Assembly (NCBI GenBank): GCA_030390025.1
Contig: CM059431.1
Location: forward strand, 158,536,001-158,600,000
Source: Squalus acanthias
Lineage: Eukaryota
Reading direction: 5' to 3'
Length of the DNA stretch: 64,000 bases
Shown here: positions 29,817 to 60,763 of the stretch, piece by piece
Position numbering within the stretch: position 1 is the stretch's first letter
How the letters are laid out: every line of letters begins with the position of its first letter
Translations under genes and position numbers: made by a program
Notes under the pieces: model-generated
The model's database searches: none
What the model was told of the DNA's origin: nothing
The model's input: only the letters and a program-made list of their open reading frames with translations

Positions 29817-29986
29817 AAAATTCAGATACTAAAATATTACTAATGTTGGCGAGCTGCACGGATATCCAGCTTGGAAGAATTATCGAATGCTACCGTCAGA
29901 GACTAGAACCGGCAATTGAAGAATTCGTGGAAGCTGTTAGTCAGTCGCTCTTGGATGCAAACGTGTTTACTGAATCAATACATAAG
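29817..29986 (+). CDS. Exon A1 of tandem death-fold/CARD-like module (NLR N-terminal-like)
   Basis: Acceptor ttttacag, donor AAG|gtatgc, 170 nt, phase 1 to 0; ENSDTKILLMLASCTDIQLGRIIECYRQRLEPAIEEFVEAVSQSLLDANVFTESIHK, open. Confidence 0.8.
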
Positions 29987-32430
29987 GTATGCTACATATA
30001 TGTTGGAATTGTCCAAATGGCCTCCTAAATTTGAGACGGGTTGGTGGTAGATTGTTCAAGTCGGTCTGGAACGGCATGTCTTTGCTGTTGTAACGGTTGT
30101 ATTCTCTGGCGACAGAATATTCCCCGCGTAGGTGTGATGTTGCGAGGACTTGATAGCCATGGGGTGGATGATAACAGCCTTCTCACGGCCCACCCTTTTA
30201 CGTGCTCTTAGATTACTAGTAATGTCGTCTCAAAGGACACATAACTTGTCGTTTTTAATGCATTAATTAATAAGAGAGCAGCATCTCATGGTATAACCAT
30301 GAGTTCATCGTGGAAGAATCCTCGACCCAAATATCGCCAGCTGCTTCATCAATTAACTTCCCTCATAAGGTCAGAATTTGGGCTGTACGCTGATGATTGC
30401 AGTGTTCAATTCCATTCCCAATTCCTCAGGTAACTAAGCAGTCCATGCCCGTATGCTACAAGAACTGGTCAACATGCCAGTTTTGGTGGATAATTGGCAA
30501 GTAACATTTGTGCCGCATAAGTGACAGGCAATAACCATCTGCAGAAAGAGACTCTCTAATCAACTGATAATTCACTGACAAACGTCTTGCAGTTAAGGTA
30601 ATTACCTTGGCCGTATTTCTGCTGGGATTCGGGTTACTGTTGTTTCTGTAATCGGACATAAATGGCATCCTATCTATTGAGCAATTAATCAAAATTTCAG
30701 GATTGCAAGGAACACGCCAAGACACATTGTAATGAATAATTGAATAAAACACCAGTAGCAGCGCAAGCATCACGCGTCCTCGGCACAGTCCCAATGGAAA
30801 TCCTGGACCTGGACAAAAAGTGTAATAGCCACATATAAATAATCTCAGGTGAAGAAATTAATTGACAAAACAAAATAAACTGTCGATCACGGCCAAGAGT
30901 TTCTTTCCATTCTTTATTGAAGCAATCCATTAAATTATACGATTCGTTTGAGTAACTGTCGGTGGCACGAATTTCTAGAACTTTCTACTGAACATATCCA
31001 AGTCGTTGCCTCCAGTTCTCTTTTGCTTCCAACTCCACTGCATACCTGCTACTCCCTGCATTTCTATCATCTTCCCTTTCACAGTTATTACTTTTAATTT
31101 ACAAGCTCACACAATCTGCATTATTCCACGTATCGCCAAGCACTTCACAAAATTCATCCAGCCCATGGTTTACGCAACCTTCTGCCTTGAGTCCAGGACA
31201 GCTCAGGTCATGCCCCATTTTCGGCACAATGTTCAGAGACATCAACAATACCAGCCTCATATTTCAAGTTTCCCATAATGTCCCATTTACATTTACAGGA
31301 ACCTAACCAATTTCAACAAAGCACAAATACACTAGCCCACATACATTGCGACGGAAATTACAGACAAATCCGTCGGGAAGTAATAGGAAGGTACCAATTT
31401 GGAAATGATTGCGATTTACTTGATATCAAAAAGCGTGCAACACATCCAAGTACTGTTTTGACGTGCATAGGAAACGTAATAAAAATGAGATTTTAGAATT
31501 GAATGTAGGGAGTGCATGGTTAATTATATAAAAGTAATCAAGGAAGCGTAGTTGATAACGAGCAGAAGGTAAAACGTTGTCAGTTTAAGAATTTGGTGAT
31601 TGGCAGGTGGCAGAATTCGAGACAGTGATCACATTTCATAAACACTTCAAATAAAGTAGTAATTCATAAGACAGGGTTGCTCAAATATAGAAAGGCAATG
31701 GTTCATATCGATGATGAATGATTGACTGATAAGCATTTGCTACTGTTTCGATGAACGATATTTGGAATAAACAAATGTCTCATTGCAGTCAATGGTAATG
31801 AAATTCGGACGCATGTTTAATGGGGCGCCCATTCGCTATCAGTAACTTTCCTGCGACTGGCCGATTCCAATTTCATCCGCATTGTTTTTCAATCTGTGCA
31901 ATTTGAGTTGCAGAAAGCAAGTGATGAGCTTTCCAAAATATTACTGTAACTAACAACCAATAATAATGCTTGATTGGACGAATCATATTCTTGCAATCGG
32001 AAGTTATTCCCTTTTCTGTCACTTCATTCTTATTTCATCTATCAGTTGAGAATATCCAGTTTCCCTCGGTAACTCAAAGCTGGTCCGCTCTATGTCTCCA
32101 AATTCCTCCAGGCCTTCAACCCCCCGTGATCTCTGTGCTCATCCAATTCTGGCCTTTTGCGAATCCCCGATTTTCTGCACGCCACAATTGGTAGCCGTGC
32201 CTTGAGCTTTCTCGGCCCGAAGATCTGGAAATCACTTCCTAATCCTCTGCGGCTCTCTGCCATTATCTCCTTCTTTAAGGCGCTCCTTAATACTTAGCTC
32301 GTAGACGAAGATTTTTTTCACCGTATTGTTAGCATTTCTGTACGTTCCTCTCATAAAGAGTGGGAGAAAAAAAAACAGACGCTTCTTGTCTAAATTACTT
32401 GATTGAATATGATTGCAATATATTTTTTAG

Positions 32431-32602
32431 GAAATCAGAACACTTGCTGAAAGTCAGCGCAGAAATGATGCTTCCCAACTCATTTTCGATACTGTGCTGG
32501 AAAAGGGAGCTCGGGGAGAAAGAACAATCTGGAACATATTTCTTCAACTGCAGAATTCAAAACCCACCGTGAAAGCGACATTGCTAAAGATACAGAAGAG
32601 AG
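32431..32602 (+). CDS. Exon B1 of the module
   Basis: Acceptor ttttttag, donor AGAG|gtacag, 172 nt, phase 0 to 1; EIRTLAESQRRNDASQLIFDTVLEKGARGERTIWNIFLQLQNSKPTVKATLLKIQKR, open. Confidence 0.8.
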
Positions 32603-32628
32603 GTACAGGGCTAGAAAATGATCTAGAA

Positions 32629-32889
32629 CATAGAACATAGAAACATAGAACAGTACAGCACAGTCCAGGCCCTTCGGCCCTCGATGTTGTGCCGAGCATT
32701 GTCCGAAACCAAGATCAAGCTATCCCACTCCCTATCATTCTGGTGTGCTCCATGTGCTTATCCAATAACCGCTTGAAAGTTACTAAAGTGTCCGACTCCA
32801 CTATCACAGCAGGCAGTCCATTCCACACCCCAACCACTCTCTGAGTAAAGAATCTACCTCGGACATCCCTTCTATATCTCACCCCATGC
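32629..32889 (-). mobile_element. Short CR1 3'-end insertion specific to unit 1
   Basis: TSD ATCTAGAA (32621-32628, 32890-32897); (AACATAG)n tail; absent from the other units. Confidence 0.88.
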
Positions 32890-32990
32890 ATCTAGAAGGT
32901 AGGTGGCGTCCAATTCGAATTGCAAAAGATCTTGTTTAATTTCAGAGTAACAGAGTTCATTGATTAAGCTGAGGAAGCTTTTTAAAGTTA

Positions 32991-33754
32991 TTGGCCCTGA
33001 AATTAGCCTCTCCAGCTTGCTGTGGGGGTAAGGATCACGCGCGCACTTACCTACCGCGCCTGCCGTTGACCTCTGGGCCCACAGGAACATCAGCTCCTGG
33101 GCCTGCTCCAAGTGCCGGCAAGCAGTGCTTGCGTGTCCCAGGTGCGCAGTTAGTGCGCTGCGTCCCTTGGGATCACGTGGTCTATGATGAGCAAATGGCA
33201 GCAGACCATCTTCCATTCATAAATTTGACAGGAAGACCTGTCAAATCTATGAATTGAAATCGGACCCAAAAGAACTGCTAAACGAAAATATTTTTTTAAT
33301 AAAACATCACATTTATAAAATAGCTATAAGTTAAATAAATTAACAACATTATACAAAAATTTAATTTTTTTAAAAAATTAAAATAATTTTTAACAGTGCT
33401 AAAAATAAACTTACCTTTCTTTAAAGTATCTAAAAAAGATAAACCTGTTGAAATGTTTTTAAATTATAATTAATTAACTACTTACCTTGTTGAAAACGGG
33501 TCCAGCGACTCCTTTTTAAAAGCGCATGTTCTTCAATACTTATCCTCCGGTAGAAACCTGAAAAAACGCTAAGTTTGCTGCGTGTGCGCAGCCTCTACCG
33601 CGCACGCGTTTCACCTTTGAACCGCTCCCTTCACCAGACCGGAAGTTATGTTTCCCGCGCATGCGCAGTGCATGTAGGAAACCGGCACTTCAGGACGCCT
33701 TAAGGCTAAGTGCACAGTGCGTTCTCACCCGCAAGGCCGATTTTTTTGTCCCAA
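32991..33754. mobile_element. Non-autonomous DNA transposon (MITE-like, Harbinger-style ends) specific to unit 1
   Basis: Empty site aaagttatgtccg in unit 3 (~54818-54830); imperfect inverted ends ttggccctgaaattagcc / ggccgatttttttgtcccaa. Confidence 0.7.
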
Positions 33755-33762
33755 TGTCCGTA

Positions 33763-34408
33763 AGGGTGAAATTCTAATTGAGCCGGGACACACAACATGC
33801 GGAATCGCATTTGCCGACAGTTACAACACACGCCCGATATTCAGTTCAATTCAAGTGTATTCGGGCGCAATATATAACACGTGATGGATGCGATACGGCC
33901 GAAATTACTTCTGCTGCCCGTTGTGCGCTCGGTCGGATATTCCCTTCCTTTGACTCCAATAGAACTGCAGAGGCTGCGCTGTGCCCTCCCAGAGGTGGCA
34001 ATCAGGGACATCTCTCAAATCAGGGAAACTGCTGAAATCTTCAGCTCTTCACAGTAATTGTGCTCTTAAATTCCCCATTATAAGGGATTGGGTGTAATTG
34101 GGTTTCAACAGCGTTTTGACTTCTACACAAATTTTTGTGCCTGAAAATCTAATTTTAACTTTGTGCAGTGTCAACTTTCTTCATTTTCTTACTCACTTCC
34201 TTGTTCGTTGCCTGTGAGAAATCTGAGTATTAATTATCTGCTTAGACAACCTGTCGACGTCACCGCATCTTGCACGAGAGGATCCCCATGATACTCCGTT
34301 GATTTGAATTTCAGTTCGTAAAACCTCAACTTCTCCACACTGTGATTGCGAGATCTTTTTGTAAATTAAACTTTGGGGCTAACAGCAAACGCCTTTGCTT
34401 CGTCGCTG
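33763..34408. mobile_element. Older MITE-like element shared by units 1-3 (copies ~48265-48957, ~54833-55523)
   Basis: gggtgaaatt...aaattccggg(c/a)c ends; CpG-rich; non-coding. Confidence 0.45.
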
Positions 34409-34446
34409 ACCTCAAATTCCGGATCATTATTTAATAGTGGTATCCT

Positions 34447-35731
34447 GGGAACGGTAGCATAGTGGCTAGTCATCCAGAGGCCTTTACTGATGATCCAGGG
34501 ACGTGAGTACTAAATCTCACCAGAGCAGTTGGGGAATTTAAATTTGTATAATTTAATGAATCTGGAATAAAAAGCTAGAATCTGCCGTCCTTACCTGGTC
34601 TGATCTATATGTAACTCCAGACCCACAGCAATGTAGTTGACTCTTAAGTGCCATCTGAAGTGGCATAGCAAGCCACTCAGTTGCTACGAAACACAATAAT
34701 AAGAATGAAACCACCATGCATCGAACTCGGCACCGGCTTCGGACATGGCAACGGCACTCCTAGCCCAATTCAACCTGCAAACCACCATCTGGGGACGGGT
34801 GGCAACATTTTGGAGCTGTCCCACAGGCTAGGCAAGCAAAAGCCTGACATAGTCATACTCACCGAATCATATATTTCAGTTAATGTCCCAAAATTCTCCA
34901 TCACCATCCCTGTGTGGAGGCACAGAGGTATACAGTATGCAAGGAGTGGCCCTGGTTGTCTTTAACATTGACTCCGGATTCCATGAAGTCTAATGGCTTC
35001 AGGTGAAGCATGCACGCAAGGAAACCTCCTGTTTATTACCACAGTCTGCCCTTCCTCCGTTGATGAATCAATATTCCTCCATGTTAAACACCACTTGTAA
35101 GAAGCACTGAGAGCAGCAAGGGCACATAATATTCGCTGATTGGGGGACTTCAATGTCCACAAAGAGTGACTCGGTAGCACCACTACTGACCGAGCTGGCC
35201 GAGTCCTGAAGGACATAGCTGCCAGTCTGGTCCTGCGAAAGGTGGTGTGAGATTCAGAACAATTCCAGCAGCTTAGAACTGGGCATCCATGAGGCGCTGT
35301 GGTCCATCAGCAGCAGCAGAATTGTATTACACCACAACCTGTAACCTCATGGCCCGGCATATCCCTCACTCTAAGATTACCATCAAGCCATCGTACCAAA
35401 CCTGGTACAATCAGGAGTGCAGAAGAGCATGAAAGGAGCAGCACCAGGACTAACTAAAAATGAGGTGCTAACCTGGGTAAGCTGCACCACATGCATGCTA
35501 AAAAGCGGAAGCAGCATGATATAGGGCGAAGTGATGCCACAAACAACGGATGAGATCAAAGCTCTGCAGCCCTGCCACATCCAGTCGTGAATGGAGGTGG
35601 ACCATTAAACATCAAACGGGAACAGAGAATATCCCCATCCTCAATGATGGTGGAGCCCAGTACGTGAGTACCAAAGACAAGGCTGAAGCGTTTTCAACCA
35701 TCGAGAGCCAGTGTGCTGAGTAGATGATCCA
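34447..35731 (+). mobile_element. tRNA-like head followed by the endonuclease region of a second CR1-group LINE, truncated by the ERV LTR (copies 48981-50308, 55548-56215)
   Basis: Box A TAGCATAGTGG, degenerate box B; then PDIVILTESY and GDFNVH endonuclease motifs. Confidence 0.75.
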
Positions 35732-36909
35732 CTCTTAATGATCTCTGAGTTCTTGGACAAGACACCAATAGGCAGTAGCCAGCGTGTTTGAGCAATAGAT
35801 CAAGATGTATTAAGCATACAGTTTAATATACTTAATATTAGGCGACAGTTTAACGAGTAGCTCGCAGCCATTGGCCTCTGGAACGTCTCGGAGACAGATG
35901 ACGTCGTCTTAAGTCTGTTCCTTTCTTCTCGCAGTAGGTCTGTGTAAAGCTGTTCTTTGAGTATCGCAGTTTTAACCCTTTTCTTATCAACAGTTCGTTT
36001 GGCCACTGTCCATATATGGTCTTTAACAAAATCACCTTTTATAATTGGTTCTAATGGTCTAAATACCATTGGCACTCAGACTAAGGGACTAGCCCGCCTT
36101 TCCAATATTTTTTCCACCAACTTTTCCACGTTCAGTGTTATCTAGTTTATAGTTTTTCACTCCATTAGAATTGACTTTATCTCTTTCGTTTGTAGATTCC
36201 CTGGTACAAGGCCTTTATAACATGGGCCCATATCAGCGCTCTTTCAATAGTCTTGAGTTACCCAGGAGTGATTATGGGTATTATTATTTGTTCAATGGCT
36301 ACACTTGAAGTTATACATATATGATTCTCGTCTACTAAATATCTCTAAATATCAGCCTTTTGTAGAAGTCCCCACATCGAGGATGAAATGTTTTAAACTT
36401 TGATTCCTCGACTGCTTCAATCTTTTCTCTGACTAGCGTTGCTGCAATTCAGAGTCCTCGAATTAAGGGGAACGCAGCGCTTCTCAAATGAGGTTTTATC
36501 CACCTTTTCATTATTGGTCTGGGTGCTAACTATAACACTCACAGGGGCCGACCGCCTATTCTCTTGGCTGGGAGAGATCCCGGGGTCTCCTCAACCATCA
36601 TGTCGGTCGTGCTGATATGTCTTGCCTTCTAGTGCATCCCACTCTATCCTTTCTCCACCGCCCGCTGCCCCTACTGCTGCATCATATGATCTGGCAGTAT
36701 CGGCCCTGATCTCACCCCTTACTCAAATTCAATTCACTGTTCCGGTGTTCAAATTCTGCCCCGTCTGGGGTATCCTCTGTTTCTTCTATCTTTCCTGATG
36801 TTACCCCGCCTGGGGTCTCCTCCACATTGGTTTGGATCTTCTCTTTCGGTGAGCTCAATTATTTTGTTGATGCTGGTTAGTCATAGGCATACAATTGACT
36901 TATGTATCA

Positions 36910-37240
36910 AAGTCTTACTACATACGTTACATATATGAAATACACTATCATTACAAGTTGGAGAACTACCAGAGCGTGTGAAATAAAATGAACCTAAGGG
37001 CGTGCTCATAAATGAAGCCCAATATCCCACCAGTGTGAGTTGTCCTCTATGCTGTCAATTTTCATGTCCATTCTAGAGTTGTCTTTCTCGAAAACATAAA
37101 AATACTTTAGGGAGTAGTTCACTCGCATCATGAGCTCACTGAAGCCTTTTGACAACAGCGGGATGTCGTATCTGAATTGTGCCACATAATTGTGCAGCTC
37201 ATCCTTAAAAACGTGTTGGGTGATGGGAAGGTCCTGTTAG
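36910..37240 (-). pseudogene. Envelope-like glycoprotein C-terminus (degraded)
   Basis: Manual translation: DELHNYVAQFRYDIPLLSKGFSELMMRVNYSLKYFYVFEKDNSRMDMKIDSIEDNSHWWDIGLHL*ARP*VHFISHALVVLQLVMIVYFIYVTYVVRL (heptad-like stretch, WW, TM helix). Confidence 0.5.
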
Positions 37241-38813
37241 ACCAGTAAAGCATGGTAGTTGCGGCAGTAGTGGCACAGGACGCACCACCAAAACCACCTC
37301 ATACTGGCTTCGTACTGGTTTTTCCCACGCTCTATTTCCTACAAAACTCAATTATTACAGTTACAAGTTAAATTCAGTCTTGAATCATTTCATGTGACAT
37401 TGCAGTTTAACATCTAATCAACAAATCATGGACTTAAAAGTTTCTCCAGATCTTTCTTAATTGTATTCTTCTTGTGGATAATTCTAACTAATCATGATTT
37501 CTCCTTGGCCCAGAATTGTCCCAATCCAATTTCCATATAACTCTCCACTTCAACTTCAATGTCAATCCTTCTAACAGGTACCAGTGTGTTTAAATCTATT
37601 CTGATTGTTTCATTAATTAGATAGTTTCTCGATGGAGTGTGTGTCGATGCTTTAAAAGTTGTCTCACTCTCCTGAGCCACATTAACCATTTCATGTCTTG
37701 CTGCTGTCAAGTAAATGAGCCTGTCTGATACCTGTCCATCAGTGCAAATTAAACATACATTCCCGGATGGTAAATGCCTCATACGTAACGAATCACATTA
37801 GCACACTCATATCGGTATCTCAATATCGTGCCACACGTGCCATCCGATACAAGACATTCTCGGGCTTTCAGGTAATCCTGCCAAAAGATTGTCTGGAGGT
37901 CTTTGTTCATCTTCCACAACATGGTCCCGATGTCTTGGATAGTGGCCGGACTATCAAATTCAGATTTCTTAAAAAGTTCATTATAGGCAGAGGCACAAAT
38001 GTCTCCAAGATAAAACTATCAATTTACTTTTCTAAACACTTTCCTGAATTTCACTAGAAAGTTTGGAAAATACCCATTTGTTGGTGTATTTCTACTGTTT
38101 ATACCTCACACCCTCAATCACCTCCTCTCTCCATTTTGCACATCCCATTAATTACCATTCATATCTCATTCTTGAGCCCTGGAGGAACTTTACTGTCCAG
38201 TACAATTTTTAAGATTGAAAACATAGATGAAACATTCTCACTTGGTACAAGTTATCAACACTTTTTATTATCATTATTTTAGAGGACCTTTTATTTTCCC
38301 AAAAGTAACCCAATATATAGTGCCTGAGTCCATTCTGTTATTACAAAATTATCCCAAAATGCAAACAGCAGCATTGTTGAACTGACAGGTTTTGTCAATG
38401 TTAAATTGCATTTCTTTCACTTTATCTTTCAATTTCCAACTTCAGAAACGAGTGATTCCCAGTGTAGGTGGTTTATACAGTGTTTTAACATTACAGACAG
38501 AAGTGCTGCAATTAGTTTATAAGGTAACTTCCATATAACAAAAGAAAGAAGATAATCCATTGTGACTCTGCTTAGAGCCCAAGGGGTTAATAATTTTCCT
38601 TCTGTCACTGTGGGAAAATATTAAGTTAAGTTAAGAAACTTAAATGTAATAAGGACCAATATCTTTAAATTTCATAATAAAGATGTTGCTTGGTGAACTT
38701 AAACAGCTGTCAGTGCAAAGGGTTAACTCCTTTGCATGTTTTTAAGATGGTGGAGCAAAATATTTTCAGGCGCACGTAATTGCGTCACTTCACGTAAATT
38801 TAAAAAAACTTTT

Positions 38814-38906: not shown

Positions 38907-39949
38907 ATTTAAAAAAAACTTTCCCGATCGAAAAAGACAGTTGGTTTTCACACTTTAACTAAACACAAACAGAACAAAATAGCACATGCTTGCAGAAAAC
39001 TGAAAATAACGTCATATTTCTTATTGTTCTTTCTTCAGATGCCTTTCCAAAAAACTCTAAAAATATTGAATATAAGTGGAGAAAAATTACTTTTCCACAT
39101 TTAAACACATCAAATCAAATTGCTTTGGAAGATCACACCATAGCAATCGCAATTCCAAGGATAAATCTTAGACTGAAACGTAATCTTTGTTAAACAAACT
39201 TTTAGTTGTTCTTCTCAGAATTACACACCAGCTTAACTTAAACTGTAGTTCAAAGTTTTTTTTCAATTCTTGGGGCAAAATCTTATTCGCACATTCTTAA
39301 AACTTCCAAAATCCAAGACAAGACAAAAGTTTTAAAGGCTTTTAGCACAGAGAAGTGGGTGGAGCTAAAACACATAACAGACATTTTTTTTATAACAGAC
39401 TTTCAGACAAAATAAATACTTTAACTTCTTAAACATTCATAATGAGGAAATCTTTCACCTTTTTAACCTGCACTTTCACACAATCTAAAATTCCAGCATT
39501 TTTTTAAGCTTCCTTTCACTCAGCAAATCTTCTGTTTTATTTGTCTCAGCAAAGACGTTAATAACTTCCATGTCAGTAAAACTTTAAGAGGTAGAAATTA
39601 GATCGCGCCCCATTTGGGGCGCAAATATCGTCCGGACGCAAATATTAGCGCCTGGCACTAATTATCGGCACTGACTGGAAACTTCACTTTTACTGCCCCG
39701 GGAGGTGAGTGGAGCGCTAAAGCAGGCGCTGCACACCTGTCTTAAGGCGCAAAGGCCAAGGAGTGAGGCACTAACTCAGCGCGCGAGCGCAGCGCAGCTG
39801 CTGCCAGTTAGCGAGGGAACACAGACACACTGGCGCCGGACACTTCTTAAAGCGGGGGGGGGGGGGCACTTGCTCCCCAGCCACACCCTGCTCATTGCAG
39901 CCTTGAATCTCAGCCTGGAGAGACCTGTGAATCCATTTTGCTGCCAAGC

Positions 39950-41779
39950 ATGGAGAGGGTGAGAGAACGCGCTCATCGCTTCACCGAGCGGGCCTTGGAT
40001 GCTCTGGTTGGCGCAGTGGAGCGCAGACGATGTATGCTGTTCCCTGAGAGTGGCAGGAGGCCTTTGCCACGCAAGTTCAGAAGAGTTTGGAGGGAGGTGG
40101 CTCAGAGCATCTCCTCCAGGAGCATGGTGCCCAGGACCCATACTCAATGCCGCAAAAAGTTCAACGACCTCACTCGGGTCGTCAGGGTGAGTGGCTTTTT
40201 CTCAATACCTCTCCATCCCTCCATCTCAACCTCACTCTATGGCCAGAGGGTCTTAAAACCCCAATGCTCAACACTCATCCAACACCTATGGCCCTTTCAT
40301 CAAACACACACACACATTCCACACTTTGCATACAGTAAGGGCTATTCACCTATGGGAGGCACATCAGGCAACACCATGGCTGTATACAGTAAGGGCTATT
40401 CACCTATGGGAGGCACATCAGGCAAGACCATGGCTGTATATTTACTCAGATGCTGTCCTTTTTCTTGCAGGCTAAGCTGGCTCATAATAGGAGACAGCAG
40501 CAACGGACAGGTGGAGGGCGGCCTCAGCTGCAACCCCTCAGCGATCTGGAGGAGCGCGTCCACAGGATTGTGGCAAGCCGGGTGATCGGTCCCGTCGCCA
40601 CTGGAGACGCCAACCCCGTTCTGGACAGCAATGGTAAGGTCATCATCTTTTTGTCCTCTTTCCTTCCACTTGTCCCTCACAACACCAGCCTTTGACACTT
40701 TCAATCCAACTTGCTAACTCGCTGCACTTATTCCTCCCTTACTGCCACCCTGTCCTCACGCTAAAGCCACTCTTGTACCTCCCTGCTTTCAGATGGTGAT
40801 TCACCAGCTGAGGAGACGGGCCCTGAAGCTGCCACTGGGAGTGATGCTGCAGCTGAGGAGGAAGAGGAAGCCAGAGCATCAGTGCCACCCTCTCCCGAGG
40901 AAGCCCATGCCCACACTGGGAACACGCCTTCCCCGGAGGGGAGCAGGGGGGAAGGGGCTGATGAGGGTGAAGCTCCAGGACCCAGCGGGCTGCAGCAACG
41001 CCATGGGGGGGGGGGGGGGTAGGGAAGAACGGGGGCCTTCTCCCCAGAGGGAGAGTATGCCAGACACTCCTACTGCAATGGACGCAGAGGAGGAGCGGCT
41101 GATTGCAGAAATGAACACCCAGGCGGTGGGCATGCACACTGAGCTCATGGGTGCAGTGGGAAGGGTGCCCGAATGCATTGAGTCACTGGCAAGGAGTGTG
41201 GAGCACTTCGCTGTAGCACAGGCGGATGCCACACTAACGCTTAGTGCTGCAATTCAGTCACTGGCTGCCGTGATCCCACCTCTGACTGCTCTCATACAGA
41301 CTCAGATGGAGGCTACGCCAGCACAGACTGCTGCCAACCTCGATGGTGCGTGCACATGTCCCCGGGGCTGTCACCGCGCCGCAGCAGGCCAGCAATCTGT
41401 TCTCCGGCAGATTGCTCCTGATGCTGAAGTGCTGCCCCATGGGAGTGCCAGTGTGTCGGGCGAGCAGGGAGTTGCTGTCCTCTCGCACGATGACAGCATT
41501 CCTGCTGCCAACACTGTCACTTCTCCACTGCACTTGCCACCGCCTGTAGGACAGACTGCTGCCGCCCATGCAGAGTTGGTGCAGTCTGCAGCCGGGCCCT
41601 CGAGGCCCAGAAGTGGTCGAGGCCGTCCTTCAGGGGCATCTGCAGTGTCAGGGTCTGACGAGCAGCAGCCTTCCACCAGCGTTGCTGCAGCCACTGAGGT
41701 CCCATTACGGAGGAGCAGTAGGGTTAGAAGGGGGGAAGTGCGCAAGGGAAGGAGATCACCCTCGAAGGGCAAAAAGTAG
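39950..41779 (+). CDS. Harbinger Myb/SANT-like DNA-binding protein, 3 exons (39950-40186, 40471-40633, 40793-41779), one homopolymer frameshift
   Basis: RFTERALDALV..WREVAQ..RTHTQCRKKFNDL trihelix; RTGGG motif; GT-AG sites with matching phases; G15 run at 41005-41019 breaks the frame. Confidence 0.88.
40331..40438 (+). repeat. 54-bp tandem duplication in Myb intron 1
   Basis: tacagtaagggctattcacc...catggctgta twice, one mismatch. Confidence 0.9.
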
Positions 41780-42073
41780 GAGGTGTGACAAAATGCTGGT
41801 CATTTTTTTATTAAAGGCCGAGGTTCATGGTCCAACTTTTGTTTAGTGTTTTGGACATTATCTCCAGGTTGTGAGAACCAGTTATGTTATTGACTGTTTT
41901 TTTGTGTTTATTTCTATGAGTTTGTCATGACGATTTGACACACTCAGAGTTTGTAAAATAAATAAGTTTCTGTATTCAAAATATACATGGCTGGTGGTTG
42001 GAAGTATTGGTGCCTTGGCCGGCATAGGGGTTGCGTGCTGGGTTGCATAATGTTGGTAGCAATGGCAGGGGTC

Positions 42074-43234
42074 CTAGAAGCGGCTTGCTATTAGCCGTTG
42101 ACGGACGGCCCTTGCAGTTTGACCATTGTGGGCCGCCCTCCCGCCTTGGTGCTGCTGATGATCATCGTCCTCGTCCTCTTCCTCCTCTTCCTCCTCATCC
42201 TCTGGTGGTGCTACAAGGCCTGGTGGCATTGGCTGGGTCCTGAGGATTGCCATGTTGTGCAACATGCAGCACACGACTACGAAGTTCGATACTTGCTCAG
42301 GCGAGTACTGCAGGGCTCCTCCGGAATGGTCCAGACAGCGGAACCGTTGTTTCAGCATGCCGATTGTGCGCTCAATAATGTTCCTGGTTGCTTGATGGCT
42401 TTCATTGTACCGCAGCTCAGCAGGGGTGTTTGGCGTACGGAGCGGTGTCATCAACCAGGTGCTCAATGCGTACCCCTTGTCCCCGAGAAGCCAACCAACT
42501 GGCTGATGCGGTGCCTCGAAAACTTCTGCCACAGTAGTCTGGCGCAGGATGAAAGCATCGTGGCAGCTGCCAGGATAGTGGGCATTGACAGCGAGTATCA
42601 CCTGTCTGTGGTCACAGACCAACTGGACATTCAAGGAATGGAACCCCTTTCTGTTCCTGAATTCCTCTGCATTCTCACGTGGAGCACGCAAAGCCACATA
42701 TGTGCAGTCAAGGGCGCCCTGCACCATGGGGAAGCCCGCTACCCTCGCAAAGCCCAGAGCACGGTCACGCTGCTTGTCTGGGGTCATAGGGAAAGAGATG
42801 AACTCTCGTCTCCTTCTGAAGAGGGCATTGGTGACCTGCCGGATGCAGCGATGCACCGCGAACTGGAAGATATTGGCGAGGTCCCCAACAGCAGCTTGGA
42901 ATGAGCCAGTGGCGTAGAAGTTCAAAGCCACTGTGACCTTCACTGCCACCGACAGAGACGTCCGGGACCTCAGCTGAGGCTGCAGATCGGGCTGCAGCAG
43001 GTGGCAGAGCTCAGTGACCACCTCCTTGCTGAATTGCAGCCTTCGCAAACACAGCTCCTCGGACATATGGATGTAGGAGAGCTGTTCACGATATACCCTG
43101 GGAAGGTAAGCTCTCCTGTACATGCGCCTGATGGCCCTCCTCCGTCTGGCCATCATTGCCACTCTCTGTCTACGTCTCTGTATCCTCCGATTCAGCTGGA
43201 GCAGGACGACGCCCCCAATCAGTGCAGTCCCCAT
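42074..43234 (-). CDS. Harbinger DDE transposase (HARBI1-like family), intact single exon
   Basis: VALNFYATGSFQ, GALDCTYV, FRNRKGFHSLNVQLVCD, YPGSCHDAFIL, LLGDKGY, RNIIERTIGMLKQRFRCL, CCMLHN; first ATG at 43234. Confidence 0.96.
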   Translation of the reverse strand: MGTALIGGVVLLQLNRRIQRRRQRVAMMARRRRAIRRMYRRAYLPRVYREQLSYIHMSEELCLRRLQFSKEVVTELCHLLQPDLQPQLRSRTSLSVAVKVTVALNFYATGSFQAAVGDLANIFQFAVHRCIRQVTNALFRRRREFISFPMTPDKQRDRALGFARVAGFPMVQGALDCTYVALRAPRENAEEFRNRKGFHSLNVQLVCDHRQVILAVNAHYPGSCHDAFILRQTTVAEVFEAPHQPVGWLLGDKGYALSTWLMTPLRTPNTPAELRYNESHQATRNIIERTIGMLKQRFRCLDHSGGALQYSPEQVSNFVVVCCMLHNMAILRTQPMPPGLVAPPEDEEEEEEEDEDDDHQQHQGGRAAHNGQTARAVRQRLIASRF

Positions 43235-44539
43235 ATTCTCTTTGCCAGAAAAGTAATGAGGGACAGCAACTAAAGTAGCAACAAAGTTAGGATGAATAGG
43301 CAAAACTACCTCACAAAGCGTTGAGTCAATGTAGAAGTCTCTCTCTCTCTCTTTCCGAATCTCTCTCTCTTAGAACGAGTGGTGCATAAATGTCGACCAC
43401 AGAAAAAGATAGGAAGAGGCCCCCTTTAAATAGCGCCCCCCCCCAGCCCCACACCGATTGATAGCGTTCCAGTCTTCCGGTTGTTGGAAGCGCCAGGCGG
43501 TAAGGCAGGGGGCACCACTCAATTTCTGCTCCGGGGCGCCCCAAGGGCGTTGCACCATGGAATGACGTCACAATATGCGCGCGCAGGTGGTCGCAGCGGT
43601 AAGTTTTAGTGCCGCCGCACAATCTCAAGTTAAGTTCTCGAGCGGCGCAAACATCGCTGCGCCCGGGCGTTAGCGGCTTTGCGCCCCATTAGCGCCCTCT
43701 TAAGGCGCTAACGGGAGGCGCAACCAAGTGAATTTTTACCCCTAAATTTCTCTTTTTTTTCTCTTTTTAAATGGCGTCTCAGCAGCTTGTCCTTGCTTTC
43801 CAAATCCCAGTTTTTTCCTTTCATTTGCTGAGTTTTCAGATTGGTTAGCCTGCAAATTCGGTCTTTTTCTTTCTTTATCTCTCCCTCTCTCTCCTGCACT
43901 TTATGCTTAACCACCTGGCTATGTTTTTCTCTTAACCCGTTGTGTTTTTTCTGAGACAGTCTTTCCGGAATAAAGTTTATCATGACGTCGTCTTAAGTCT
44001 GTTCCTTTGTCCTGGCAGTACGTCTGTGTAAACTTGTTCTTTGAGTATCGCAGTTTTAACACTTTTCCTATCAACAGTTCGTTTGGACACTGTCCATATA
44101 GGGTCTTCAAAAAAATCACCTTTTATAATTGTTTCAAATGTTCAAAATACCATTGTCACTCAGACTAAATTAGCATCCCGCCTTTGAAGCATTTTTCCAC
44201 CAACTTTGCCATGTTCAGTGTTAGCTTGTTTATAGTTTGTCACCCCATTGGAATTTAAATTATCTCTTTCATTTTTTGCTTCCCTGGTACAAGGTCTTGA
44301 TACCAAGGGCTCATATCAGCGCTGTTTCAATATTCTTGAGTTTCCCAGGAGTAATTATGGGTAATATTATTTGGTCAATGGCTACACTTGACGCTATACA
44401 TATATGATTCTCGTCCACTAAATATCCCTAGATATCAGACTTTCGTACAAAAAGCTGCTGCTCTAAAAGTTTGTTAAAATCATTAATTGCTTCAAAGCGG
44501 ACACTGTAATTTAACCCGTGCTCTTTTACACTTTTGCAG

Positions 44540-44709
44540 ATAATTCAGACACTAAAATATTACTAATGTTGGCGAGCTACACGGATATCCAGCTGGGAAA
44601 AATTATCGGTTTCTTCCGTCAGAGACTAGAACAGTCAATTGAAGAATTCGTGGAAGCTGTTAGTTAGTCGCTCTTAGATGCAAACGTGTTTACTGAAACA
44701 ATTCATAAG
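44540..44709 (+). pseudogene. Exon A2 of the module, in-frame TAG at 44665-44667
   Basis: 170 nt, intact splice sites (ttttgcag, AAG|gtatgc); CAG in copies A1 and A4 is TAG here. Confidence 0.8.
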
Positions 44710-47965: not shown

Positions 47966-48137
47966 GTAATCAGATACCTTGCAAAAAGTCAGCGTAGAAA
48001 TGATGCTTCCAAACTCATTTTCGATACCGTGCTGGAAAAGGGAGCTCGGGGAGAAAGAACAATTTGGAACGTATTTCTTCAACTGCAGAACACAAAACCC
48101 AAACTGAAAGCGACATTGATAGAGATACAGACGAGAG
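47966..48137 (+). CDS. Exon B2 of the module
   Basis: 172 nt, tttttag and G|gtacag; VIRYLAKSQRRNDASKLIFDTVLEKGARGERTIWNVFLQLQNTKPKLKATLIEIQTR, open. Confidence 0.78.
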
Positions 48138-51031: not shown

Positions 51032-51201
51032 AAAGAGAAAATATTAGAATATTACTAACGTTGGCGAGCTACACGGATATCCAGCTGGGAAGAATTATCG
51101 CTTTCTACCGTCAGAGACTAGAACAGTCAATTGAAGAATTCGTGGAAGCTGTTAGTAATTCGCTCTTAGATGCAAATGTGATTACTGAAACAATTCATAC
51201 G
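51032..51201 (+). CDS. Exon A3 of the module
   Basis: 170 nt, ttttgcag acceptor, weaker donor ACG|gtacac; open frame ...LASYTDIQLGRIIAFYRQRLEQSIEEFVEAVSNSLLDANVITETIHT. Confidence 0.76.
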
Positions 51202-54200: not shown

Positions 54201-54533
54201 TCCGCTAATTCCTCCAGCCCTTCAATATTCCGTGATCTCTGTGGTCTTCTAATTCTGGCCTATTGCGAATCCCCGATTTTCTGCACGCCACCATTGGTAG
54301 TCGTGCCTTGAGCTTTCTCGGCCCGAAGCTCTGGAATTCACTCCCTAATCCTCTCCGGCTCTCTGCCATTCTCTCCTCCTTGAAGGCGCTCCTTAAAGCT
54401 TACCTCGTAGACGAAGATTTTGTTCACCTAATTTTGAGCTTTTCTACTCGTTCTTCTCATAAAGAGAGGGAGAAAGAAAACAGACGTTTGTTATCTAAAT
54501 TACTTGGTTTAATATGATTGCAATTTTTTTTAG

Positions 54534-54705
54534 GAAATCAGATCCCTTGCTGAAAGTCAGCGCAGAAATGATGCTTCCAAACTCATTTTCGATACCGTGC
54601 TGGAAAAGGGAGCTCGGGGAGAAAGAACAATCTGGAACGTATTTCTTCAACTGCAGAATACAAAACCCAAACTGAAAGCGACATTGATAGAGATACAGAA
54701 GAGAG
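54534..54705 (+). CDS. Exon B3 of the module
   Basis: 172 nt, tttttag and G|gtacag; open, EIRSLAESQRRNDASKLIF...IEIQKR. Confidence 0.78.
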
Positions 54706-56215
54706 GTACAGGGGCAGAAAATGATCTAAAAGGTAGGTGGCGTCCAAATCTAATTGCAAAAGATCTTGTTTACTTTCAGAGAAACAGAGTTCATTGTTTA
54801 TGCTGAGGAACTTATTTAAAGTTATGTCCGTGAGGGTGTATTTCTGATTGAGCGGGGAGATACAGCAGGCGGAATCGCATTGCCGACAGTTACAACACAC
54901 GCCCGATATTCAGTTCAATTCAAGTTTATTTGGGCGCAATATATAACAGGTGATAGATGCGATACCGCCTGTATTATGTCCTCGCCGAAAAACGGCCGAA
55001 ATTACATCTGCTGCCCGTTGTGCGCGCGGTCGGACATTCCCTTCCATTGCATCCAATAGAACTGCAGAGGCTGCGCTGTGCCCTCCCAGAGGTGGCAATC
55101 AGGGAAATATATCAAATTAGGGAAACTGCTGAAATCTTCGACTCTTCACTGTAATTGTGCACTTAAATTCCCCATTGAAAGTGATTGGGTGTAACTGGGA
55201 TTCAACAGCGTTTTGACTTATAAACAAAAGTTATGAGCTTGAAAATTTAGTTTTAATTTTGTGCAGTGTCAACTTTCTTCATTTTTTACTCACTTCCTTG
55301 TTCGCTGTCTGTGAGAATTCTGAGTTTTGATTCTCTGCTTAGACAGCCTGTTGACGTCACAGCATATTGCACGAGAGGATCTCCATGATACTCCGTTGAT
55401 TTGAATAAAAGTTCGGAAAATCTGAAATTCTCCACACTGTGATTGCGAGATCTTTGTGTGAAGATAACTTTGGGGCTAACATCAAACGCATTTGTTTCGT
55501 CGCTGACCTTAAAGTCCGGGCCATTCTTTATTTAATAATAGTATCCAGGGAACGGTAGGATAGTAATAATATCACTGGGCTAGTAATCCAGCTAGGTCTG
55601 GACTTGATGATCCAGGGACGTGAGTGCAAATCCCACCACTGCAACTGCGGAATTTAAATGTACTTAATTAAATGAAACTGGAATAAAAAACCTAGTATCT
55701 GCCGTCCATTCCTGGTCGTGTAACTCCAGACTCCCAGCAATGTAGGTGAATCTTTACTGCCCTTATTTTTGTCTGGCTTAACAAGCCACACAACAGCAAA
55801 AATGAAACCGGGCAGACCACCAGTCATCGAACTCGGCATCGGCTACGGACATGGCAACGGCACACCTAGCCCAGTGGAATCTGCAAAAGTCATCCTCACC
55901 AACATCTGGGGACTGGTGCCAAAATTTGGGAGCTGTCACACAAGCGAGTGAAGAAACAGCCTGATATAGTCATACTCACAGAACCATACCTTTCAGACAA
56001 TGTCCCAAACTACTCCATCAACATCCCTGGGTGGCGGCACAGAGGTATGCAGTCGGAAAGGAGTGGTCCATAGGTGTCCTTAACAGTGACTCCGGATCCC
56101 ATGAAGTCTCACTGCTTCAGGTGAAGCAGGGGCAAGGAAACCTCCTGCTGATTACCACATAACGCCCTTCCTCAGCTGAAGAATCACTCCTCCACCTTGT
56201 TGAACACCACTTGTA

Positions 56216-57443
56216 ACTAGCAGAATAGATAAGGGGGACCCAATGGATGTGGTGCATTTGGATTTTCAGAAGGCTTTGGAAGAGGTGCCACAAAAGAGGT
56301 TGTTAAACAAAATTAGGGCTCATGGGATTGGGCGTAATATATTAGCATTATTCAGGATTGGTTAACTGACGGAAAACAGAGAGTTAGAATAAACGGTTCA
56401 TATTCGGGTTAGCATGCTGTTCCTAGTAGGTACGCAAGGATCAGTGCTTGGGCCTCAGCTTTTCACAATCTACATCAATGATTTGGATGAGAAGTCCAAA
56501 TGTAATTTATCCACGTTTGCTGATAATACAAAGCTGGGTGGGAATGTAATGTATGAGGGGGATGCAAGTAGTCTTCCAGCGGATATAGACAGGCTAAGTG
56601 AGTGGGCAAAACCATGGCAAATGGAATTTAATGTGGAGAAATGTGAAGTTATCCACGTTGGTAGGAACAATAACAAAGCAGAGCTTGTTTAAATGGTAAG
56701 TAATCGGGAAATGTTGGTGTTCAGAGGGACCTTGGTGCTCTTGTACACGAATCACTGAAAGCGAACATGCAGGTACAGCAAGCATTTAGGAAAGCAAATG
56801 TTATGTTGGCCTTTATTACAAGAGGATTTGAGTACAAGAGTAAAGACGTCTTACTGCAATTATATAGGGCCCTGGTGAGACAATACCTGGAGTATTGTGT
56901 ACAGTTTTGGTCTCCTTAATTAAAGAAGGTTTTACCTGCCATAGAGGGAGGGCAACGAATGTTCACCAGATTGATTCCTGGGATGGGGGATTGTCCTATG
57001 AGGAGAGATTAAGTAGACTAGGGCTATTTTCTCTAGAGTTGAGAAGAATGAGAGGTGACCTCATTAAAACATACAAAATTGTTACATGACTTGACGTGGT
57101 AGATGCAGGGAGGATGTTTCCCCTTGCTGGGGAGTCGAGAACCACGTGTCACAGTCTCAGAATCAGAGGTTGGCCATTTAGGACTGAGATGAGGCGAAAT
57201 TTCTTCACTCATCGGGTGGTGAATTTTTGGCATTCTGTACTCCACAGGTCTGTGCAAGGTCCGTCTTTGACTATACTCAATACAGAGATCGATAGATTTT
57301 TGAATATAAAGGGAATCAAGGGATATTAGCTAGTGCAGGAATGTTGATTTGAGCTAGAAGATCAGCAATGATCTTATTGAATGGCGGAGCAGGCTCGAAG
57401 GATCAAATGGCCTACTCCTGCTCCTATTTCTGATGTTCTTATA
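56216..57443 (+). mobile_element. 5'-truncated CR1 LINE at the unit 3/4 junction
   Basis: QGSVLGPQLFTIYINDLD, FADNTKLGG, RRNFFTHRVV; CR1 3' end. Confidence 0.9.
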
Positions 57444-57926
57444 TTATCCGTAATCCCCTGCATTAATGGCATACATTAACTTCTTATCCCAAACGGATCG
57501 TTTGTGAAAGCCTCCTCCTCATCTGCCAAACCCTCTCCGGTCTCTCCCACTTTTACTCTGCAGACTACTTCGCATACCTTCTATTACATTCCTAATACTA
57601 CTGTCCCTTTACTGTAGTAAACAGTGTATCGATTTTCTCTTCTGGACTACAGCTATAAACGTCAACCGAACTGGCTGGATATTCATTCCTATAGCCATCC
57701 ATCCCATTACTTCTTGCTTACTGTAAAAAGCCGGTAAATGTTGCAAGTTCTGGGCCATTTCGCATAAATCGACCAAAATTTGGCAGCGTTAATGCTGAGT
57801 CCTCCAATTGTGAAGCGCCACAGGCCCTGTCATTGCCCTAAATAAACGTTGTTGCTAGAGCAGTCAGTTCAGAGTATTCCTTGTCCTATAGAGGACACTA
57901 TATATTAATATTTTACATCCTGACAG

Positions 57927-58096
57927 AAAATGTTGATACTAAAATCTTACTAATGTTGGCGAGCTACACTGACATCCAGCTGCGCAGCATTATCAAGCGC
58001 TACCGTCAGAGACTAGAACATTCCATTGAAGAATTCTTGGAAGACGTTGGTCAGTCGCTCTTAGAAGCAAACGTGTTTACTGAAACAGCTCATAAG
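57927..58096 (+). CDS. Exon A4 of the module
   Basis: 170 nt, tgacag acceptor, AAG|gtatgc; open, ENVDTKILLMLASYTDIQLRSIIKRYRQRLEHSIEEFLEDVGQSLLEANVFTETAHK. Confidence 0.78.
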
Positions 58097-60591
58097 GTAT
58101 GCTGCATATATGTTGGAATTGTGGAGTGTTAAATGAGTCATACGATTACCTGTTTCGATTAACTGAATTCCATGCAGCCCAGCGCTATAAAAATACGCGA
58201 AGCTCCAGTGTTTTAACTTCAATACTGATGCTGAAAATGTTGTCCAGTATCATTAGAAAGTATACTTAAATTGCTCCTCTGAAATATAGCTCTGGTAAAT
58301 TAATTTGTCGTGAAATTGCCAATTTAACCATTAAATAATAAGAGAACAAAATCGCGTTGCATACCATGAGTTAATCATGGCAGTGTCCTTTGTCCAACTA
58401 TCGTCAGCTGCTTCATTTATGAACTCCTCTCAAAAGGGCAGAATTTTGGCTATTCGCTGATAATTGCACACTTCATCTCCATTCACTATTCCTCAAAAAA
58501 TTAAGCAATCCATACCCGCATACAGCAAGATCTAGACAACATGAAGGTTTGGGCGGATAAATGCAATTAACATTCACGTCACACAAGTACCATGCAATAA
58601 CTGTCTCCAAAAAGAGTTTATCTAATCACCTAACCTTGAACGTCACTGGCATTACAATCGACGAATCGGCCACCATCAACATCCGGGGGTCACCTCTAAA
58701 ATCAGTCCTGATAATTCACTGCCAAGCGTCTTTTAGTTAAGATTATTCCAGCTGCCGCAGTTCTGCAGGGGATAGGTTTACTGCAGTTTCTGACATCGGA
58801 CATAAATTGCATCCTATACATGGAGCAATTAATCCAAATTTCATGATTGCAAGGAACACCGCAAGGGACATTTCGATGAACAAGTAAATAATACACCACT
58901 AGCAGCACAAGCATTACGCGACCCCAGCTCGGTCCCAATGGAAATTTTGGAGCGAGATAAAACATGTAATAGCCCCATATATATAATCTCAGGTGAAGAA
59001 ATGTATTGTCATATTATAACTAAACTCTCGATCAAGGCCGAGAGTTCCAGTCCGTTCTTTATCGAAGCAGCCGTGCGTTCCCATTAAACTATACGATTGT
59101 TGCGAGTCACTGCCAGTGGCGCAAATTTCTAGAACTTTCTACTGACCATATCCAAATCGTTGCTTCCGTTTCTCTTCTTCCAAATTCACCGCATGGCTGC
59201 TTTGCTCTTCATTTCTAACACAACCCTTGCCATTGTAATTACTTCTAATTTACAACCTCACAGAATCTGCATTATTCCACGTATCGCCAAGCATTCGCAA
59301 AATTCATCCAGCCCATGGTTTACGCAACCTTCTCCCTTGACTCCAGGACAGCTCAGGAAACGCCCCTTATTTGGCCCTATGCTCAGGGACATCAACAATA
59401 CCTGCCTCTTATGTCAAGATTGCCATAATGTCACATTTAAAAAACAATCCATAGTATCATCTGTGATGTCTATCTCCTCTCTTTTCGAGTATTTCCAAGA
59501 GTTAAGTAACACATATGTTAATAAAGTATTGTGAATAAAGCTGGTTCGTCGAAAGCAACGATTGTCGGTTGATGATTCAGGGCTGGGAGCTAGGAGCTAA
59601 AATATCCTGTTCCAAAAAAATAATATTTTTTAAACAAAAAAACGGAAATAAAAAGGAGATTTTAAAATTGAATGTAGGTAATGTATGGTTAATTACATAA
59701 AATAAATCAAGGAAGCACAGATGATAAGGAGCTTAAGGTAAAACGTTGTCATTTTAAGAATTTGGTGATTGGCAGTTGGCAGAATTCGAGACAATAATCA
59801 CATTTCATAAAAACTTCAAATAAGTAATTCGTAGGACAGAGCTGCTCAAATATAGAAAGGCAATGGTTCATCTAGAAGATGAATGATTGACTGATAAGTT
59901 TTCGCTACTGTTTCGATGAACGATATTTGGAATAAACGAAAGTCGCATTGCAGTCATTGGTATAGAAATGCGGACGCATGTTTAATGGGCCCCCATTCGC
60001 TATCAGCATCTTTCATGAGACTGGCCGATTCCAATTTCATCCGCATTGTTTATCAATCTATGCAATTTGAGTTTCTGGAAGCAAGTTGTGAGCTTTCCAA
60101 AATATTGCTGTTACTAACAACTAATAATGCTTGATTGGACGAATCATATTCCTGGAATCGGAAGTTTTTCCCTTTTTTTGGCACTTTACCCTTATTTCCT
60201 CTCTCAGTTGAAAAAATCCGTTTCCCTCGGTGACTCAACGCTGGTCGTCTCTGTCTCTGCAAATTCCTCCAGCCCTACAGCCCCTCGTGATCTCTGCGCT
60301 CATCCAATTCTGGCCTTTTGCGAATCCCCGATTTTCTGCACGCCACCATTGGTAGCCTTGCCTTGAGCTTACACGGCCCGAAGCTCTGGAATTCTCTCCC
60401 TAATCCTCTCCGGCTCTCCGCCATTCTCTCCTCCTTCATGGCGCTCCTTATAAACTGTCCTCGTAGACGAAGATTTTAATCACCTTATTGTGTGCTTTTC
60501 TATTCGTTCCTCTCATAGAGAGAGGGAGATAGAAAACAGTCGTTTCTTGTCAAAATTACTTGATTGAATATGATTGCAATATATTTTTTAG

Positions 60592-60763
60592 GAAATCAGA
60601 ACACTTGCTGAAAGTCACCGCAGAAACGATGCTTCCCAACTTATTTTCGATACTGTGCTGGAAAAGGGAGAGAGGGGAGAAAGAACAATCTGGAACATAT
60701 TTCTTCAACTGCAGAATACAAAACTCAAACTGAAAGCGACATTGATAGAGATACGGAAGAGAG
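60592..60763 (+). CDS. Exon B4 of the module
   Basis: 172 nt, tttttag and G|gtacag; open, EIRTLAESHRRNDASQLIF...IEIRKR. Confidence 0.78.

Follow-up and report, generated by a model that had tools for sequence, protein, structure and literature searches.

The window analysed here is a stretch of 64,000 nucleotides of Squalus acanthias (C7:158536001-158600000, where C7 is contig CM059431.1 of a 3.7 Gb assembly), examined together with 40 kb of upstream and 100 kb of downstream flank. It carries a tandem array of a two-exon cassette whose product is predicted to adopt a CARD-type fold, and which appears to form the 5′ coding part of a gene for an NLR, a receptor with NACHT and LRR domains. Features past the window end are given in window-equivalent coordinates, that is, in window numbering extended past 64,000. 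Exon copies were located by BLASTN, with exon pair 1 as the query against both strands, and their boundaries were set by alignment of the flanks and a boundary scan. This returned exactly four copies of exon A and four of exon B, all on the + strand, with no further copies elsewhere in the window and none on the - strand. A fifth cassette lies past the window end and is the only further copy in the flanks examined, 40 kb on the upstream side and 100 kb on the downstream side. The exons and the stretch before the first of them are as follows.

29431..29811, + strand: intron-like stretch before A1, 65-69% identical to the 3′ part of B-to-A introns of other arrays
29817-29986, + strand: exon A1, 170 nt, phase 1-0, first half of putative CARD cassette 1, open
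32431-32602, + strand: exon B1, 172 nt, phase 0-1, second half of cassette 1, open
44540-44709, + strand: exon A2, 170 nt, both splice sites kept, one in-frame stop
47966-48137, + strand: exon B2, 172 nt, open
51032-51201, + strand: exon A3, 170 nt, open
54534-54705, + strand: exon B3, 172 nt, open
57927-58096, + strand: exon A4, 170 nt, open
60592-60763, + strand: exon B4, 172 nt, open
64335-64504 and 69387-69558 (window-equivalent), + strand: exons A5 and B5 of the fifth cassette, past the window end

Every one of the eight window exons is preceded by a pyrimidine-rich tract and AG and followed by GT, and the AG and GT are kept in all ten exons of the five cassettes. Spliced together, A and B would give 342 nt, or 114 codons, and the codons spanning the junctions from one B exon to the next A exon are GAT or GAA. 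Stops are absent from seven of the eight window exons, or from nine of ten when cassette 5 is counted. A preliminary description of this DNA had reported the exact 170 and 172 nt lengths, the AG and GT sites, the phases and the number of open exons, all of which were upheld by alignment with the flanks. The unequal introns that it described were likewise recovered, at 2444-3332 nt from A to B and 2894-11937 nt from B to A, as was the phase symmetry of the cassette; with phases of 1-0 for A and 0-1 for B, skipping of A2 and B2 together would keep the frame. The span that it gave, 29817..60763, fits the four window cassettes but not the end of the array, which is reached only with cassette 5 (64335-69558, window-equivalent).

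The preliminary description had also proposed that a large NACHT exon be sought downstream on the + strand, and one was found 6 kb past B5, with a compatible phase-1 acceptor. It contains 538 open codons (L002:1738-3351) and the Walker A motif GAAGIGKS, and Pfam reports NACHT (E = 4.1e-33, 115 bits), NOD2_WH (E = 1.5e-7, 31.9 bits) and NLRC4_HD2 (E = 1.6e-8, 35.5 bits). Homology to relatives begins 5′ of the 538-codon frame, near 75622, at an acceptor that reads ttcaag followed directly by AGATAGAA; the same acceptor precedes the NACHT exon in two intact paralogues. Three short LRR exons lie 3′ of the NACHT exon and are followed by a stop codon near 79720. They align to the LRR tails of the homologues P0009, P0011 and P0008 and of two paralogues, and would encode a short tail of roughly 120 residues, broken in the window copy. 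We infer that the cassettes, the NACHT, winged-helix and HD2 exon and the LRR exons belong to one NLR gene. About 40 kb further downstream there is a second, fragmentary NACHT-LRR pseudogene on the + strand (window-equivalent 117439-119310; L006:3439-5310), with several frame changes and no cassettes ahead of it within the fetched span.

The reading frame and splice sites are not continuous through all exons of the window copy. Judged against the paralogues at C7:153.80, 155.52 and 157.22 Mb of the same assembly, the copy carries five lesions, listed here with the exon that holds the second of them.

44665-44667, + strand: lesion 1, CAG to TAG in A2 (CAG in A1, A4 and A5)
75622-77351 (window-equivalent, approximate), + strand: NACHT, winged-helix and HD2 exon, placed by homology to relatives and its phase-1 acceptor
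75735-75737 (window-equivalent), + strand: lesion 2, TAA early in the NACHT exon, at the Y of LDEKY in paralogues and homologues
78845-78846 (window-equivalent), + strand: lesion 3, acceptor of the first LRR exon changed from AG to CG (AG in both paralogues)
79226-79228 (window-equivalent), + strand: lesion 4, TGT to TGA in the second LRR exon, by comparison with paralogues
near 79338 (window-equivalent), + strand: lesion 5, insertion of 1 nt in the second LRR exon, by comparison with paralogues

The closest paralogue, at 157.22 Mb, has a NACHT exon that is 90% identical and an open frame of 583 codons as against 538 in the window copy; the shortfall of 45 codons is exactly the part cut off by the TAA. 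Given five independent defects, a pseudogene is the best reading, and the window copy is probably a young one, recently inactivated, whose youth would account for its mostly open cassettes. We would expect no functional receptor from it, and it is best annotated as a pseudogene.

Two other fates of the locus bear on these lesions. The gene could be functional at full length if its nonsense codons, frameshift and missing acceptor were assembly errors or belonged to one null haplotype. The NACHT frame does stay open for 538 codons past the TAA, at 90% identity to an open paralogue, and nine of the ten cassette exons are open. Set against this are five independent lesions, four of them base substitutions and each checked against paralogues in the same assembly; so many errors in 35 kb of a chromosome-scale contig would be unlikely, and we regard a functional gene as decidedly improbable. 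Alternatively, the locus could still be expressed as a CARD-only product in which cassette 2 is skipped and translation ends at the TAA, leaving about four CARDs with a possible decoy or regulatory role, of the sort played in CARD signalling by caspase-1-derived CARD-only proteins. Such a product would draw on the open cassettes 1, 3, 4 and 5, the AG and GT kept in all ten exons, the phase symmetry by which A2 and B2 skip in frame, and the position of the TAA upstream of the Walker A motif. However, at least three exon junctions lie past the premature stop, so that nonsense-mediated decay would be expected; the three further downstream lesions fit overall decay rather than selected truncation, and the ratio of non-synonymous to synonymous substitution rates (dN/dS) among the local cassettes, described below, is about 0.85. 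A CARD-only product is accordingly an improbable outcome in our view, and the young pseudogene is the reading retained here.

As well as defining the downstream part of the gene, the NACHT frame led to a large set of relatives. A protein search with this frame returned 458 proteins at E <= 1e-20, and the best 120 were examined. All of these are chondrichthyan NLRs save two frog entries, with a best identity of 54%, and most bear the names ‘NLRP3-like’ or ‘uncharacterized’, as assigned by their sources. A hidden Markov model (HMM) of the cassette, built locally from the five spliced cassettes, matched 110 of the 120 proteins: 98 have one copy, six have two, five have three and one has five. In single-copy homologues the cassette usually lies near the N-terminus. 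Some multi-copy homologues, in which about 1000 residues separate the cassettes, are evidently products of gene-model fusion; true tandem copies occur in P0009 (five) and in P0011, P0086 and P0040 (three each). Homologues with two to five tandem copies are thus already present in public protein sets, and the cassette is not ‘hidden’, as the preliminary description had called it.

The window cassettes are 46-57% identical to the homologue domains, and the two exon halves align to them gap-free, A to columns 1-56 and B to columns 57-113. The resemblance to the N-terminus of cartilaginous-fish NACHT receptors, put forward in the preliminary description, is borne out by this identity and by the HMM matches, and the cassette is, as judged from these alignments, the usual N-terminal domain of cartilaginous-fish NLRs. 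A word-based protein search with the exon B3 peptide against longer proteins gave no match. In the protein sets searched, identity nowhere exceeded about 57%, so they do not include the copies of this genome. Two of the homologues, P0068 and P0123, start with MGNSGS and MGQGSS, respectively; we take these to resemble an N-myristoylation signal, which would suggest membrane anchoring.

The preliminary description had likened the cassette product to a death-fold or CARD domain, and three lines of evidence support the comparison. Firstly, Pfam CARD (PF00619) is reported on P0009 with a score of 40.4 bits, where the cut-off is 23.9 (E = 3.1e-10; residues 641-711, in the fifth cassette). Secondly, an alignment of the homologue domains, with residues 178-290 of P0009 as its first row, was used as a profile against 1.84 billion representatives and matched 133 proteins at E <= 0.001. 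Twenty of these matches were scanned with Pfam (17 weak or repetitive and three stronger), giving a CARD at E <= 0.001 in 12, of which ten were above the cut-off. The CARD lies right under the matched stretch in P0229, P0230, P0233, P0238, P0246, P0247 and P0249, seven proteins with profile E-values of 2.9e-07 to 7.4e-04 over the whole library and Pfam CARD E-values of 1e-18 to 1e-5. In a sequence search of the Protein Data Bank (PDB), CARDs were four of the six best matches (ICEBERG, caspase-1 twice and RAIDD), at E = 0.13-0.25.

The third line is structural. The same alignment gave an AlphaFold2 model of the homologue domain with seven helices, at a mean predicted local distance difference test (pLDDT) score of 86.3 and a predicted template modelling (pTM) score of 0.77. 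The top five Foldseek matches in the PDB were the CARDs of ARC, zebrafish NLRP1, NLRC4, NOD1 and caspase-1, with probabilities of 0.99-1.00. When 102 chains were re-scored by VIA-align, 43 entries stood at Z 7.7-12.8 and the next at Z 3.5; the 43 align over 82-102 residues, at about residues 14-112 of the model, with a root mean square deviation of 1.7-3.4 Å. Nearly all are CARDs or CARD-containing, the exceptions by title being one unnamed entry and one designed protein. Identity to the solved CARDs is just 6-18%. In the model the phase-0 intron falls inside a helix at residues 52-63, the third CARD helix. The cassette is therefore modelled as a short extra N-terminal helix and one divergent CARD.

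The name ‘NLRP3-like’ implies a PYD, and none was reported by Pfam at E <= 0.1 on P0009, P0011, P0086, P0040 or P0068. No PYD structure was among the 50 entries listed by VIA-align, although absence from such lists does not exclude a PYD, and the positive evidence for a CARD is the stronger argument. Most of the seven proteins with a CARD under the profile match join a TNFR cysteine-rich ectodomain to a C-terminal CARD. Outside the NLRs, the closest relatives of the cassette profile are the TNFR-like P0229, P0230, P0233, P0247 and P0249, in which a CARD stands where a death domain would be expected.

The window array is one of many in the genome. A search with the exon B peptide (E <= 1e-5) gave at least 150 matches, three with stops, from the best 150 of 432 first-look candidates, and exon A gave 116 matches, seven with stops, so that about 96% of these 266 genomic exon copies are stop-free. 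With the NACHT frame, the best 80 of 634 first-look candidates were scored. On C7, ordering of the exons by strand under a 30-kb joining rule shows A and B in nearly strict alternation, with a NACHT exon closing many of the arrays; two arrays have a BB or AA step, as expected when only some of the candidates are scored. The array counts are lower bounds.

C7:153.72-153.80 Mb, + strand: array of at least 12 A and at least 13 B exons, NACHT open
C7:154.57-154.71 Mb, + strand: array of at least 17 A and at least 17 B exons, NACHT open
C7:155.45-155.52 Mb, + strand: array of at least 8 A and at least 8 B exons, NACHT open
C7:157.28-157.22 Mb, - strand: array of at least 3 A and at least 3 B exons, NACHT open
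window array, + strand: 5 A and 5 B exons, NACHT broken

At about ten loci a single cassette precedes the NACHT exon (A-B-NACHT), and for several arrays, each of five to nine cassettes, no NACHT exon is among the matches listed. The arrays at 153.72-153.80 and 154.62-154.71 Mb are near-identical in their exon-by-exon match scores, which could reflect either segmental duplication of about 90 kb in the very recent past or a haplotype left uncollapsed in the assembly.

In a sample of 38 kb from two of the arrays with an open NACHT exon, all 13 exons keep their lengths of 170 or 172 nt. Four of the 13 are defective, with a donor changed to AT, a donor changed to TT, an acceptor changed to AT and a stop in the first codon; not every genomic cassette can therefore fit one mRNA. 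Together with the common occurrence of single-cassette genes, these defects in paralogous arrays lend something to the idea that the cassettes are alternative exons, with one or a few CARDs per transcript and a choice of effector domain. Serial inclusion should nevertheless be the default, since every A exon comes with an acceptor and every B exon with a donor, and the phases match. In relatives, public gene models hold two to five cassettes in tandem, and no conserved island that would hint at a leader exon for each unit or a docking-type element is visible in the B-to-A introns. We consider alternative use of the cassettes in this family unlikely.

The five units of the window array are homologous across their introns as well as their exons, aligning over 12-88% of their length at 79-91% identity. 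The youngest pair is units 2 and 3, which are 91% identical over 5.1 kb. This pattern fits growth of the array by tandem duplication of whole units of about 6.5 kb, introns included, and agrees with the expansion by cassette duplication put forward in the preliminary description. Exon identity within the array is 85-93% and exceeds whole-unit identity in all ten cassette pairs. None of the ten pairs has an exon indel, whereas alignable intron DNA has 4.8-12.1 gap openings per kb; the intron rate predicts 1.6-4.2 indels per 342 nt per pair, although the pairs are not independent. Exons so similar and so free of indels would not be expected by chance. Against two other arrays, the window cassettes are 80-86% identical in coding sequence, and alignable intron stretches of more than 300 nt are 64-72% identical. 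Between arrays, the median dN/dS is 0.63, and 24 of 25 pairs fall below 1; within the local set of five cassettes it ranges from 0.44 to 2.12 over ten pairs, with a mean of 0.85.

These comparisons also bear on whether the ‘exons’ might be chance open frames in repeated transposon debris, with no coding role. The units are indeed full of LINE (long interspersed nuclear element) and DNA-transposon fragments, and the intron flanks of the exons are conserved between units too. We reject this explanation, and regard it as barely credible, on the strength of the 46-57% protein identity to annotated NLR N-termini from several shark and ray species. The strict A-B alternation leading to NACHT exons genome-wide, the absence of exon indels beside so many intron gaps and the stop-free state of nearly all 266 genomic copies count against it as well.

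Our data are best explained by an NLR gene with five CARD cassettes, a member of a large clade specific to cartilaginous fishes; the window would hold the 5′ coding part of this gene, and the copy is now most likely a pseudogene. We hold this reading with considerable confidence. Each unit of about 6.5 kb would carry one two-exon cassette, from which splicing would yield 114 codons; tandem duplication of whole units would have come first, followed by transposon insertions and indels in the introns. In NOD1, NOD2 and NLRC4, NACHT-driven oligomerization clusters the N-terminal CARDs. By analogy, ligand-induced oligomerization of the NACHT domain in an intact receptor of this kind could cluster its CARDs, and the cluster might serve as a nucleus on which CARD adaptors or caspases acting downstream assemble through CARD-CARD contacts. 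A chain with several CARDs in cis would have a higher valency, as the two CARDs of RIG-I have towards MAVS. The preliminary description had envisaged an innate immune gene with a growing number of effector domains: its assignment to a CARD-NLR that grows by cassette duplication stands, whilst the five lesions and the local dN/dS of 0.85 do not fit an active gene at this locus.

A number of observations weigh against this reading, and we gather them here. Every splice junction is a prediction from the sequence. The first coding exon and promoter of the window gene were not found: with the N-termini of eight homologues as queries, nothing at E < 0.4 was detected on the + strand upstream of A1, and these N-termini are not conserved among the homologues themselves. 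The mean dN/dS of 0.85 implies little amino-acid constraint on the local exons, the openness of which may only reflect youth. Pfam alone detects the CARD only marginally: it was not reported on the cassette-bearing P0011, P0086, P0040, P0068, P0122 and P0125, and seven window exon peptides scanned singly were all sub-threshold, with nothing from exon B and the best match, in the right register, from A4 (15.9 bits, E = 0.013, residues 20-52 on profile positions 2-33). The Foldseek E-values are all above 0.1, with none at or below 0.001, and the structure model is that of a homologue about 50% identical rather than of the window’s own spliced product. Lastly, the pseudogene call draws on one assembly, in which base errors or a segregating null allele could produce the same picture.

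NLRs with one or two CARDs, such as NOD1 and NOD2, are textbook innate immune sensors. The gene in the window would be a CARD-NLR in which the CARD is encoded by a duplicable two-exon cassette. Its nearest counterparts are P0009 of Scyliorhinus torazame (1405 aa, five copies) and the ‘NLRP3-like’ P0011 of Mustelus asterias (1186 aa, three copies), which have the same domain in the same order. Both share with the window tandem cassettes followed by NACHT, winged-helix and HD2 domains and a short LRR tail, with the cassettes 46-57% identical and the NACHT exon 47-54% identical. They differ in that the window copy is broken and comes from another species, and the PYD that their source names imply was not found in them.

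NOD2 (two tandem CARDs, NACHT and LRR) and NOD1 (one CARD) resemble the window gene in carrying CARDs directly upstream of NACHT, and structures of the NOD1 CARD rank with the best matches to the model (Z 11.1-12.4); the signalling logic would presumably be the same. Neither has anything like five cassettes, or the at least 17 of paralogous arrays, or so short an LRR region, and the two CARDs of NOD2 are of a single-exon type, whereas those of the window are split over two exons in a phase-1 symmetric cassette. Nor is NOD2 the closest NACHT relative; the best NACHT matches form a separate chondrichthyan clade. RIG-I and MDA5 also carry tandem CARDs in one chain, and their CARD structures match the model at Z 9.1-10.6; they have a helicase instead of NACHT and two copies only, and their likeness to the cassette is at the level of the fold. 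Poly-CARD chains also occur among the predicted proteins of public sets, in P0207 (eight CARD stretches and two Death domains; canonical Pfam CARD, E = 9e-93) and P0231 (seven CARD stretches, FIIND and UPA; E = 1.5e-54), which resemble the arrays in this respect but have no NACHT; their matches to the cassette profile are weak but significant, pointing to a distant relationship.

Lineage-specific expansion of NLRs has been described in other fishes. The passages of Howe et al. (2016, PMC4852459) that concern the zebrafish NLR-B30.2 family describe massive expansion and N-terminal repeats that are ‘extensively duplicated’, with death-fold domains in some groups. Those repeats are, in the same passages, a short family-specific peptide motif, as against the whole death-fold domains proposed here. 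The Fisna and B30.2 domains of the zebrafish family were not seen in Pfam scans of the NACHT open reading frame and the homologues examined here. In the whale shark, a strongly expanded, novel NLR family of jawed vertebrates, near the NLRPs, is described in the relevant passages of Tan et al. (2021, PMC8455134), which make no mention of an N-terminal domain, of a CARD nature or of tandem cassettes. It probably falls, as far as those passages indicate, in the same broad clade as the ‘NLRP3-like’ matches reported here.

The interest of these findings lies mainly in the long arrays elsewhere on C7, where the CARD appears as a duplicable exon cassette in arrays of at least 17 units. If such arrays are expressed, effector-domain valency would be a tunable and fast-evolving trait, and the arrays would provide a natural experiment on the number of CARDs in cis required to seed downstream filaments. 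Tetramers of the tandem CARDs of RIG-I and MDA5 seed MAVS CARD filaments, and this is the basis of the valency idea. By extension, we put forward, as a speculation that we ourselves rate as doubtful, a lineage of vertebrate NLRs in which each gene owes its number of CARDs to the birth and death of cassettes, from one to at least 17 ahead of open NACHT exons in this genome; long arrays would be expressed as poly-CARD receptors, and skipping would tune the number further. If this were true, a CARD filament seed could gain one or more of its turns from a single chain. In the open-access papers searched, we found no description of such valency setting in vertebrate NLRs, nor of tandem CARD cassettes in the NLRs of cartilaginous fishes. 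The CARD-type fold predicted for the ‘NLRP3-like’ domain of sharks and rays examined here, in which a PYD was not detected, also bears on inflammasome-like wiring in cartilaginous fishes.

The remaining features of the window are mobile elements and repeats. The 11.9-kb intron from B1 to A2 contains the following gene.

42077..43369, - strand: PIF/Harbinger-type DDE transposase open reading frame, 431 aa (Pfam DDE_Tnp_4, E = 2.8e-38)

This open reading frame looks intact and is intron content, outside the gene product. The PIF/Harbinger-type element to which it belongs spans 39779-43369, and also includes a divergently placed 353-aa open reading frame at 40718-41776 (+ strand) with no Pfam match and a 54-nt tandem duplication at 40330-40440. 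Many short LINE reverse-transcriptase fragments lie in the cassette introns, for example at 56393-56692.

Upstream of the array, LINE-type reverse-transcriptase open reading frames occur on the + strand at 16027-18297 and 20665-21933 (RVT_1, E = 2e-31 and 5e-30, respectively), and a coding region like that of a long terminal repeat retroelement lies on the - strand at 891-4831, with integrase (rve, E = 1e-15), reverse transcriptase and aspartyl protease open reading frames. Two G-rich minisatellite blocks, at 9625-12118 and 24243-27106, have periods of 21-129 nt and a GGGGCTGGGTCGGTGGGG-like core; their GC content is about 0.63 and their GC skew about +0.6, and one repeat family is common to both. 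Sequence akin to this minisatellite is also found about 20 kb upstream of the window.

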